14,851 nucleotides of DNA from a virus (Duplodnaviria > Heunggongvirae > Uroviricota > Caudoviricetes): the IMG/VR virus record IMGVR_UViG_2690315922_000004. The stretch is one strand, 5' to 3'. Position 1 is the first letter of the stretch. The number at the start of each line of letters is the position of its first letter. A program made the position numbers and the translations under genes. Of the stretch, positions 1 to 5,949 are shown piece by piece. The notes under the pieces were generated by a model. The model had not been told where the DNA came from and did no database searches. It saw nothing but the letters and a program-made list of their open reading frames with translations.

Positions 1-213
1 GTTGCCGCTGGTCGTAAGCGCCTGCGGGTCAATGCCAGTTGCTCCGCAGCCGTGCGTGAGGCCACCGGCCCCACCCGCGTGGATAATGCAACCAGCCCCC
101 GACTGGCAGACACCGCTGAGCGGGATTATTTCACCCTCAGAGAACGGCTGATGACAATGCAAAAGCAACTGGAAGGGGCACAGGAATATATCCGTACCCA
201 GTGTATACCGTGA
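1..213 (+). CDS. Rz: i-spanin Rz, C-terminal ~70 codons (5' end lies outside the window)
   Basis: Frame 1 reads through from position 1 to TGA at 211-213, giving ...VAAGRKRLRVNASCSAAVREATGPTRVDNATSPRLADTAERDYFTLRERLMTMQKQLEGAQEYIRTQCIP*. This closely matches the C-terminus of lambda Rz as I recall it, and the position just upstream of cos fits the lambda lysis cassette. Confidence 0.85.
   Translation, partial: VAAGRKRLRVNASCSAAVREATGPTRVDNATSPRLADTAERDYFTLRERLMTMQKQLEGAQEYIRTQCIP
2..151 (+). CDS. Rz1: o-spanin Rz1, embedded in the +1 frame of Rz (5' end outside the window)
   Basis: Frame 2 translates to ...LPLVVSACGSMPVAPQPCVRPPAPPAWIMQPAPDWQTPLSGIISPSENG* with stop at 149-151. The proline-rich sequence matches the lambda Rz1 lipoprotein and is nested inside Rz as in lambda. 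Confidence 0.8.
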   Translation: MPLVVSACGSMPVAPQPCVRPPAPPAWIMQPAPDWQTPLSGIISPSENG

Positions 214-558
214 TGTTTTGTTATAAAGGTGTTGATGGTTGTGTTAGGGGGGATTTAACAAAAAGCCAGTTCCGGACTTTATAGTGTGCTCAGATCATGG
301 CCAAAAACGATTTCTGTGATAAATATTTTGAATATTATTTACAGGTAAATGACGTGGGTCGCATGAATGAAAATATTACAATAGAGTATTAAGTATATGT
401 TCATATTGTATGGGCTGAGAAGGCAAAACACGGTAATTCCTTATGTTGCTATGATACTTGATTGGCAGAATAGTTATTTGGTCTTGAGTATATAGTCAGC
501 GTTTTTTGTTCAGTAATAGTTCTTTCAGTAAAAAACAATAAATAGCGTGATTATTTCT

Positions 559-609
559 GTTTGTTATTTATATTTTTGTTTGTTATTTATATTTTTGTTT
601 GTTGTTTTA
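559..609. repeat. Tandem direct repeat, 19-bp unit GTTTGTTATTTATATTTTT x2 plus a degenerate partial third copy, in the AT-rich region upstream of the PerC-like gene
   Basis: Read directly: identical 19-mers at 559-577 and 578-596, followed by GTTTGTTGTTTTA at 597-609. Confidence 0.85.
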
Positions 610-639
610 TTGTCTTTCTGTGGAGGGGGGAGTATTGTT

Positions 640-652
640 CCCTTATTAAGGG
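640..652. promoter_or_regulatory. 13-bp perfect palindrome CCCTTAtTAAGGG, ~45 bp upstream of the PerC-like start codon; candidate operator or protein-binding site
   Basis: Read directly: CCCTTA / T / TAAGGG are reverse complements. It lies between the tandem repeats and a possible -10 element (TAGAAT, 663-668). The function is inferred only. Confidence 0.3.
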
Positions 653-697
653 CAGGTAAATTTAGAATGGTAATCTGTAGATAATTGGAGGTCACTT

Positions 698-1012
698 ATG
701 CTACATGATCACCTGGCTGAATGTCTGGAGAAAAAAGGACTGTACCGGAGAGCGGCTGAACGATGGGCAAAAGTGATGGTACAGCTAAGTGATGATCAGA
801 AAAGAAAAATCGCGGCACAGAAACGAGCAGAGTGTTTGCGTAAGGCGCGCCGGACTTCGGTTGCACCGGTGAATCTGACAGAAATAAAGCAAGCGGTCAA
901 CAGACTACATTCTGAGTTGGGAATGGGATTTGAAGAGCGGCGGATATTCCGACGATATAAAGGGACAGGAGAACAGAATACGTCCGGAAACGCGCGGTCA
1001 AAAAAATGCTAA
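698..1012 (+). CDS. PerC-family transcriptional activator homolog (Pch-like), 104 aa; a prophage moron gene
   Basis: The ORF has a strong GGAGG Shine-Dalgarno 7 nt upstream of ATG 698. Its N-terminus MLHDHLAECLEKKGLYRRAAERWAKVMVQ carries the (E/K)KGL(Y/W)RRAAxRW motif I associate with PerC/Pch proteins, and 104 aa is the length of EHEC PchA/B/C. It sits in an AT-rich island between the lysis genes and cos, a typical moron position, and is followed by a terminator. Confidence 0.6.
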   Translation: MLHDHLAECLEKKGLYRRAAERWAKVMVQLSDDQKRKIAAQKRAECLRKARRTSVAPVNLTEIKQAVNRLHSELGMGFEERRIFRRYKGTGEQNTSGNARSKKC

Positions 1013-1050
1013 AAAATATCTGAGAAAGTTATTGCCTGTTACCATAATAA

Positions 1051-1076
1051 AAAGCGACTTTAGTAGTCGCTTTTTG
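1051..1076. terminator. Rho-independent terminator hairpin downstream of the PerC-like gene (potentially bidirectional)
   Basis: AAAGCGACT (1051-1059), loop TTAGTA, AGTCGCTTT (1066-1074), then T-run TTTTTG on the + strand. An A-rich tract upstream (ATAATAAAAAG) would give a U-run for the minus strand as well. Confidence 0.6.
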
Positions 1077-1180
1077 TGTCATATATACGTCGTTTAAGTA
1101 AACCTGTCTGAACAGGTGCTCTGGTCGTGTTTGTTTTTGTTGGGTACAAATTGAGAATGTTTTTCATTAATTAGTCTTCT

Positions 1181-1318
1181 TCAGCAGACTTCAATAATCC
1201 ACGCTGAAAAAATTCCTGAACCTTTCTGACCAAAAGCGATGTTAATTTGTTCAATCATCTGGTTTGGAAATCGGATGTTGAGGGCTGTTGTTCTGCGGGT
1301 TCTGTTCTTTGATGACAT
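1181..1318 (-). CDS. Small conserved ORF (45 aa), YlcI/DUF3950-like; homolog of the small ORF just upstream of cos in lambda and of ylcI-type genes preceding nohD/nohA in K-12 cryptic prophages
   Basis: Minus-strand ATG at 1318 (plus-strand CAT 1316-1318), stop TGA (plus-strand TCA 1181-1183). Translation is MSSKNRTRRTTALNIRFPNQMIEQINIAFGQKGSGIFSAWIIEVC. As I recall it, the lambda counterpart is 64 aa (MSTKNRTRRTTTRNIRFPNQMIEQINIALEQKGSGNFSAWVIEACRRRL...); here a TGA ends the frame at the position of the first R of RRRL. It is below the ORF-track length cutoff. Confidence 0.5.
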   Translation of the reverse strand: MSSKNRTRRTTALNIRFPNQMIEQINIAFGQKGSGIFSAWIIEVC

Positions 1319-1499
1319 AATGTTGCCCCATATTCAGTGTTGCTGGTTTGTATTTTCTGAAGTTGCTTTTACGTTAATTTGATGTGGATCAATTGATGCA
1401 ATGCCTGCGTCATAATTGATCATTTCTTGTGGTTAGATTGCGTACACACACGTTCTGATGAGTCATCATGCAGATGATAACTATTCTCATTTTTTGTGG

Positions 1500-1716
1500 G
1501 TCCTTTCCGGCGATCTGACAGGCTACGGGGCGGAAGGCGCGCGGGTTTTCGCTATTTATGAAAATTTTCCGGTTTAAGGCGTTTCCGTTCTTCTTCTCCG
1601 TAACTTCATGTTTTTATTTAAAACACCCCCTGAAAAGAAAGGAAACGACAGGTGCTGAAAACGAGCTTTTTGGCCTCTGTCGTTTCCTTTCTCTGTTTTT
1701 GTCCGTGGAATGAACA
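1500..1716. other. cos: cos site region: cosQ, cosN and cosB terminase recognition elements, with the cosN 12-nt cohesive-end homolog at ~1528-1539
   Basis: Sequence ...GGTCCTTTCCGGCGATCTGACAGGCTACG | GGGCGGAAGGCG | CGCGGGTTTTCGCTATTTATGAAAATTTTCCGGTTTAAGGCGTTTCCGTTCTTCTTC... is near-identical to the lambda right-end/left-end junction and to the cosB region upstream of Nu1. The overhang differs from canonical GGGCGGCGACCT (see findings). Confidence 0.8.
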
Positions 1717-2236
1717 ATGGAAGTCAACAAAAAGCAGCTGGCTGACATTTTCGGTGCGAGTATCCGTACCATTCAGAACTGGCAGGAACAGGGAATGCCC
1801 GTTCTGCGAGGCGGTGGCAAGGGTAATGAGGTGCTTTATGACTCTGCCGCCGTCATAAAATGGTATGCCGAAAGGGATGCTGAAATTGAGAACGAAAAGC
1901 TGCGCCGGGAGGTTGAAGAACTGCGGCAGGCCAGCGAGGCAGATCTCCAGCCAGGGACTATTGAGTACGAACGCCATCGACTTACGCGTGCGCAGGCCGA
2001 CGCACAGGAACTGAAGAATGCCAGAGACTCAGCTGAAGTGGTGGAAACCGCATTCTGTACTTTCGTGCTGTCACGGATCGCAGGTGAAATTGCCAGTATT
2101 CTTGACGGGATCCCTCTCTCGGTACAGCGGCGTTTTCCGGAACTGGAAAACCGACATGTTGATTTCCTGAAACGGGATATCATCAAAGCCATGAACAAAG
2201 CAGCCGCGCTGGATGAACTGATACCGGGGTTGCTGA

Positions 2237-2262
<26 letters not shown>
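1717..2262 (+). CDS. Nu1: Terminase small subunit gpNu1 (181 aa)
   Basis: MEVNKKQLADIFGASIRTIQNWQEQGMPVLRGGGKGNEVLYDSAAVIKWYAERDAEIENEKLRREVEELRQ... is essentially lambda gpNu1 (winged-HTH DNA-binding N-terminus), with the same length and position relative to cos. Confidence 0.95.

Positions 2263-5949
<3,687 letters not shown>

Follow-up and report, generated by a model that had tools for sequence, protein, structure and literature searches.

A pch Gene of the PchA/B/C Type Carried as a Probable Moron Between Rz and cos of a Lambda-Like Prophage

The prophage segment analyzed here (IMGVR_UViG_2690315922_000004; the window, 14,851 nt, is prophage DNA throughout, without host chromosome) carries a gene for a PerC-family regulator, pch (698-1012, plus strand, ATG start), between the Rz gene, which ends at 213, and Nu1, which starts at 1717. 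Judged by its sequence, the 104-aa product is a group-1 (PchA/B/C-type) Pch, the class that activates the LEE, and is very probably an orthologue of EHEC PchA/B/C that switches on the LEE, a function extrapolated from published work on PchA. Together with its surroundings the gene would make up a moron, consisting of an AT-rich tract, a strong ribosome-binding site, 104 codons, and a terminator, all placed between Rz and cos in a lambda-type late operon; we regard this explanation, with LEE activation included, as highly likely. The gene is a known one in its usual genomic place, EHEC biology of this kind is textbook material, and the exact sequence is already catalogued. Two observations are mildly new, namely the near-perfect co-distribution of the cassette with ler, and length polymorphism, in a 19-bp repeat and a G-run, within the tract upstream of the gene.

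The pch product is a group-1 member of the PerC family

A sequence-only reading of this DNA had assigned the ORF to the PerC family and named a search with the Pfam profile as a check. In this search, pch residues 1-89 aligned with positions 1-89 of the 90-position PerC profile (PF06069), i.e., over the full length, with E 1.3e-42 and 144.4 bits against a gathering cut-off of 22.6. The "Pch-like" part of the call was borne out by comparison with reference genes from O157:H7 Sakai and from EPEC plasmid pMAR7: Sakai PchA (ECs_1091 / NP_309118.1) is identical to the window protein at 99 of 104 positions (95%) and similar at 103 of 104, and the five changes relative to PchA (V6L, V38I, P54S, S56A, V83I) are conservative. 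Identity drops to 76% in P0031, which represents a second group of 104-aa proteins, to 48% in EPEC PerC, to 40% in PchE, and to 25% in PchD; it is because of the closeness to PchA, as opposed to PerC, PchE, and PchD, that the protein is placed in group 1.

The motif that had attracted attention to the ORF, described as (E/K)KGLYRRAAERW, is found as EKKGLYRRAAERW at residues 11-23, with a core that does not vary among PchA, PchD, PchE, EPEC PerC, and P0031. In the alignment of pch with PerC, PchA, PchD, and PchE, the invariant residues are L10, E11, G14, R17, R18, A19, R22, W23, M27, R36, R43, and C46. As had been expected, the family is an already described one: the exact 104-aa sequence is public as P0018, under the name [quoted passage not shown], and 485 contigs encode it. 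P0018 shares a 90% cluster with an O157 protein called "PchABC family transcriptional regulator" by its source. In PHROG, the window protein also hits six families of phage proteins, and the NCBIfam profiles produced only noise below threshold (e.g., ANR_neg_reg, 14 bits versus a cut-off of 32).

An AlphaFold2 model, built from a shallow alignment and of moderate confidence (pLDDT 71.6, pTM 0.38), consists of five helices followed by a disordered basic tail. Foldseek comparison of this model with PDB gave 0 matches, and a sequence search of PDB gave nothing meaningful, in agreement with the published remark that Pch has no homology to known DNA-binding proteins (PMC4764244).

There are also variant database entries for this protein. 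In P0004 (138 aa), PerC is fused to the N-terminal part of a small terminase subunit (PF03592), and P0007 and P0016 are frameshifted and run into the +3 frame at 930-1097. All three are probably products of assembly, annotation, or decay.

The cassette occupies the bor slot of a lambda-type backbone

The lysis cassette closes with the Rz spanin gene, of which the 3' part opens the window (1-213, plus strand; PF03245 Phage_lysis, E 7.1e-20, positions 76-125 of the 126-position profile). Rz1, read in an embedded frame, stops at 151, and the Rz1 profile (PF06085) is called in homologous loci; in NZ_CP039404.1, a "lysis protein" is annotated at the position that matches the end of Rz. On the other side of pch, Nu1 is recognized by PF07471 with E 9e-101, and the head and tail genes around pch are intact and 95-96% identical to those of lambda.

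The alignment of lambda and its relatives to the window begins only at 1171 or 1184 and runs to 14851, with 95.6-96.2% identity. Base 1171 corresponds to position 20437 of the lambda record, which is downstream of bor, ybcV, and ybcW, the genes that occupy the interval after Rz in lambda. Thus the 957-bp segment 214-1170 replaces bor-ybcV-ybcW, about 1.7 kb of lambda cargo, and the suggestion that pch sits where lambda has bor is upheld. The product of bor is an outer-membrane lipoprotein for serum resistance, and does not regulate genes. Both bor and pch are lysogenic-conversion genes in the same Rz-cos slot of backbones that are otherwise about 96% identical, but the Bor protein is unrelated to Pch and is encoded on the opposite strand.

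Just inside the right-hand junction, at which lambda homology restarts (1171), lies the 3' end of a 45-aa DUF3950 / YlcI-YnfO-like ORF (1181-1318, minus strand; PF13132, E 1.6e-10; phrog_949, E 1.1e-22). This ORF is convergent with pch, belongs to the lambda backbone, and is annotated as DUF3950 in NZ_CP039404.1. Its counterparts are 65 aa long in lambda and 74 aa long in the O157 copy; since the breakpoint is just beyond the stop codon and the lengths differ, the recombination junction appears to remodel the C-terminus of the protein.

The same arrangement, with pch after Rz, is found in NZ_CP039404.1, in O157 FRIK2533, in Sakai prophage Sp4, and in eight further loci. In NZ_CP039404.1, the closest prophage, pch follows Q, holin, lysozyme, and Rz; between Q and holin, outside the part corresponding to the window, this locus also has a yagU-family gene and four tRNA genes, for Ile, Lys, Thr, and Gly (3284-4320 of the extracted locus). 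The packaging genes that follow are not always the same. Lambda-type Nu1/A are downstream of pch here, as they are in eight other loci that encode the identical protein, whereas the O157 locus from NZ_CP015842.1 (2533-5344, compared with window 1-2262) has the Rz-pch-YlcI block and then an HNH endonuclease and a non-Nu1 terminase. The occurrence of one cassette next to different packaging modules indicates that it moves, with conserved flanks, between lambdoid backbones. In Sakai Sp4, IS629/IS1203 fragments flank a holin-endolysin-Rz-pchA segment, whose orientation is inverted with respect to the terminase genes (22130-26375 of the extracted locus).

The cosN cohesive end (1528-1539) reads GGGCGGAAGGCG, versus GGGCGGCGACCT in lambda, with differences in 5 of the last 6 bases. 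The flanking cosQ and cosB are lambda-like, and the same cosN variant is found in NZ_CP039404.1. An exact 28-mer of the variant is present in 78 IMG/VR contigs, so that it represents a common alternative type of cos and not damage. Only 2 of these 78 viral contigs have pch in the slot; cargo at this place varies, as one would expect where morons insert.

Upstream tract, ribosome-binding site, and terminator

The sequence-only reading had placed the ORF within an AT-rich island of about 500 bp. The island exists: G+C content is 0.28-0.34 in 200-nt windows over 201-700, compared with 0.605 at 1-200 (the end of Rz) and 0.50-0.57 in Nu1. The ORF itself, however, has G+C of about 0.50, and thus it lies beside the island, not inside; the shift of composition is confined to the upstream tract. 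This tract (214-697, plus strand, 28-34% GC) is non-coding; presumably it serves pch as regulatory region and leader, and it is a likely target of H-NS.

A scan of the plus strand of 214-697 for sigma-70 promoters found no site at the standard threshold. With a looser setting, the best promoter-like candidate is TTAACA-19 nt-TATAGT at 255-285, which is conserved in O157 and has a poor spacer. Three small ORFs in the tract (31, 32, and 45 aa) were considered as genes and rejected: a 19-bp indel shifts the frame inside the 45-aa ORF, and the first of the ORFs has several replacement substitutions relative to O157, as judged by eye.

The indel belongs to a 19-bp tandem repeat, TATTTTTGTTTGTTATTTA, present in 3.2 copies at 552-611 (Tandem Repeats Finder score 99, 92% matches). 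O157 lacks one of these units, as do five of the compared loci (L009-L011, L013, and L015), even though these five encode the identical protein. A G-run next to the repeat (622-632) is G6 or G5, depending on the allele, and in the upstream tract the window carries the segment GGAGGGGGGAG where O157 has GGTTTGTTTTT. The repeat and the G-run are located 70-145 nt upstream of the ATG and differ between otherwise identical alleles. One can imagine that it is the regulatory tract rather than the protein that varies, and that the repeat, in its 2.2- or 3.2-copy form, and the G5/G6 run constitute a slippage-prone element which tunes the expression of pch, and hence of the LEE, but we consider this a long shot.

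The prediction of a strong ribosome-binding site and of a dedicated terminator was confirmed on closer inspection. The Shine-Dalgarno sequence GGAGG (687-691, plus strand), read off the sequence, ends 6 nt before the ATG, and GGAGGT is invariant even in homologues of 75-89% identity (E. albertii NBRC 107761 and Escherichia sp. MOD1-EC7003). The intrinsic terminator hairpin (1047-1077, plus strand) has a GCGACU/AGUCGC core lengthened by A/U pairs into a 13-bp stem, with dG of -16.4 kcal/mol and z of -6.51; none of 200 shuffled sequences (0/200) folds as well. A simple consensus scanner missed the terminator because its T-run is absorbed into the extended stem. The hairpin is preceded by an A-run and followed by a T-run and could for this reason terminate in both directions, so that the symmetric structure may also end the convergent DUF3950 transcript.

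Other RNA signals were sought as well. Rfam gave no match at gathering thresholds in the whole window, and at E<=1 only weak terminator- or hairpin-driven matches, far under the cut-offs, in 1-1800. A hairpin at the start codon, suggested by folding of the single sequence 640-800, was discarded: its z is only -1.39 and it is absent from the consensus structure of four diverged homologues. Pairing between K-12 DicF and the pch mRNA was predicted in 24-nt windows, as unrestricted duplexes were meaningless, and gave an ambiguous picture; the best candidate sites are +35..+62 and +81..+104 (-20.8 kcal/mol) for the window allele, and +10..+40 (-24.9) and +81..+104 (-23.4) for O157.

Conservation of the cassette and its association with ler

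We searched 5426 complete E. coli genomes with the 867-bp region 214-1080. The cassette is retained as a whole in 673 of them, with a median of 3 copies per genome and identity usually close to 89%; the nearest genome is NZ_CP039404.1 (strain 377323_2f), with 99.9% identity over the cassette. Compared with the O157 copy, identity is 96.2% in the coding region, where 12 nucleotide differences comprise 5 replacement and 7 silent ones, 95.6% in the 3' UTR and terminator (1013-1080), and 85.3% in the upstream tract, or 81.4% when gaps are counted. The higher conservation of the coding region, together with the ratio of 7 silent to 5 replacement changes, speaks of purifying selection on the protein and of faster evolution of the regulatory region. 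Codon 33 has a synonymous C-to-T change (GAC to GAT, window 796).

A scan of genome contigs from species representatives revealed two close relatives only, E. albertii NBRC 107761 and Escherichia sp. MOD1-EC7003. The chromosomes CP030783.2 and CP117668.1 are base-for-base identical to window 1-1012; the accession of the latter belongs to a numbered series with plasmids labelled E. albertii, so that CP117668.1 may come from this species. The residues that are specific for the window allele (L6, I38, S54, A56, and I83) recur in P0002, a protein labelled Escherichia albertii, and several of the 485 contigs with the exact protein apparently come from this species. PerC-family proteins in general are present also in the LEE-free genera Salmonella, Klebsiella, and Pantoea.

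A 702-bp Sakai fragment comprising ler and its promoter was used as a second probe, alone and concatenated with the cassette. The ler probe matched 697 genomes, once in each, and the concatenate matched 699. With 673 genomes for the cassette, 697 for ler, and 699 for their union, inclusion-exclusion gives 671 genomes that have both. Thus ler is present in 99.7% of the cassette carriers (671/673), and the cassette in 96% of the ler carriers (671/697); 2 genomes have the cassette without ler, and 26 have ler without the cassette. Typical EPEC E2348/69, which uses the plasmid-borne PerC, is among the ler matches. In NZ_CP039404.1 the number of matches rises from 2 to 3 once ler is appended to the query, so the complete genome nearest to the window is ler-positive. 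As the window consists of prophage DNA only, LEE carriage of its own host is deduced from these relatives.

Relationship to known Pch and PerC systems

The closest known systems are PchA/B/C of EHEC O157:H7 Sakai, which are also 104 aa long, are encoded directly after Rz in lambdoid prophages, share the upstream tract, Shine-Dalgarno sequence, and terminator with the window, and have the same association with ler. The differences are the five conservative substitutions in the protein, an upstream tract of only about 85% identity in which the window has one extra 19-bp unit, and the genomic environment: window pch is in a true lambda-type Nu1/A backbone, while the O157 copy that we examined is followed by the HNH endonuclease and a different terminase. 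Moreover, it is the window allele, not that of O157, which is found in records labelled E. albertii.

EPEC PerC (perABC, pEAF/pMAR7; WP_000405638.1) belongs to the same Pfam family, has the same N-terminal core, LE-x-KG-x-YRRA-x-RW, and has been reported to be interchangeable with PchABC at LEE1, with gene dosage playing a role (PMC5293775). This dosage dependence fits the cassette's median copy number of 3. In contrast to pch, PerC is only 48% identical, has 89 aa without the basic C-terminal tail, and is encoded by the third gene of a PerA-controlled operon on a plasmid, whereas pch is a phage moron. PchD (ECs_1388) and PchE (ECs_1588) of Sakai are, like pch, PerC-family proteins of horizontally acquired elements, but they are 89-90 aa long, share 25% and 40% identity with pch, respectively, are located not after Rz but in SpLE1 and Sp7, the latter an untypable prophage, and are reported not to activate the LEE (PMC6265319).

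Proposed role, and the alternatives

Published work on EHEC gives a coherent picture of what group-1 proteins do. [quoted passage not shown] Pch activates LEE1 only when it is silenced by H-NS/StpA/Hha/YdgT, and lowers the occupancy of LEE1 by H-NS, both in vivo and in vitro, without binding to H-NS itself; the proposed action is that Pch, by competing for DNA, loosens the silencing complex, and the Pch-dependent loss of H-NS is confined to virulence loci (PMC4764244). [quoted passage not shown]

By analogy, the small, all-helical, basic protein encoded in the window would bind AT-rich, H-NS-coated DNA of the LEE1 promoter and displace H-NS, StpA, and Hha from it, so that ler would be de-silenced, and Pch and Ler would then turn on the LEE type III secretion island together with non-LEE effectors. 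In the lysogen, the upstream tract presumably supplies the promoter of pch; the EHEC tract is responsive to LrhA, Lrp/butyrate, and NtrC, and DicF raises translation there. Upon prophage induction, read-through of the Q-antiterminated late transcript into pch would be added to this.

Could the protein act elsewhere than on the LEE, controlling curli, flagella, fim switching, and nitrate respiration in the manner of PchD and PchE? PchE represses curli and flagella, PchD and PchE have little effect on the LEE (PMC6265319, PMC7369912), EPEC PerC has effects on nitrate reduction and on fim phase (PMC5293775), and the family extends into LEE-negative genera. Still, the protein is 95% identical to PchA and much more distant from PchD (25%) and PchE (40%), ler accompanies the cassette in 671 of 673 genomes, and additional targets would be compatible with LEE activation rather than an alternative to it, so we find this reading very improbable. 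Somewhat less probable again is a primary role in the service of the phage, in which Pch would be a general anti-H-NS factor that relieves the silencing of the prophage's AT-rich DNA at induction, with LEE activation as a side effect. Such a role would suit the location of pch within the late transcription unit after Rz, the matches to six phage PHROG families, and a mechanism that consists in displacement of H-NS (PMC4764244). Yet the presence of pch in only 2 of the 78 contigs with the same cosN variant implies that the backbone manages without it, lambda has bor in the slot instead, the near-exclusive link to ler-positive genomes argues for selection at the level of the host, and the Pch-dependent loss of H-NS is limited to virulence loci (PMC4764244).

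The least credible possibility, in our estimate, is that pch is an unexpressed relic of a defective prophage. Many pch prophages of EHEC are indeed cryptic or rearranged, as exemplified by the inverted, IS-flanked lysis-pchA segment of Sakai Sp4, and frameshifted and fused variants of the protein do exist (P0007, P0016, and P0004). In the window, however, the ORF, the Shine-Dalgarno sequence, and the terminator are all intact, the substitutions follow the pattern of purifying selection, the exact protein recurs on 485 contigs, and the surrounding head and tail genes are likewise intact, at 95-96% identity to lambda.

Implications for attaching-and-effacing Escherichia

Carriage of pch suggests that the host of this prophage is a LEE-positive Escherichia, either E. 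albertii, which carries the LEE (PMC4332760), or an EPEC/EHEC-like E. coli. What the analysis adds to the known biology of pch are figures for how closely the cassette tracks ler, and evidence of its transfer, as a unit, between lambdoid backbones that differ in their packaging module. If the length polymorphism upstream of the gene did tune its expression, the tuning would vary between strains or even between cells, and would amount to unrecognized heritable variation in attaching-and-effacing virulence in E. albertii and atypical EPEC. The presence of pch marks this prophage as a carrier of a master switch for attaching-and-effacing virulence.
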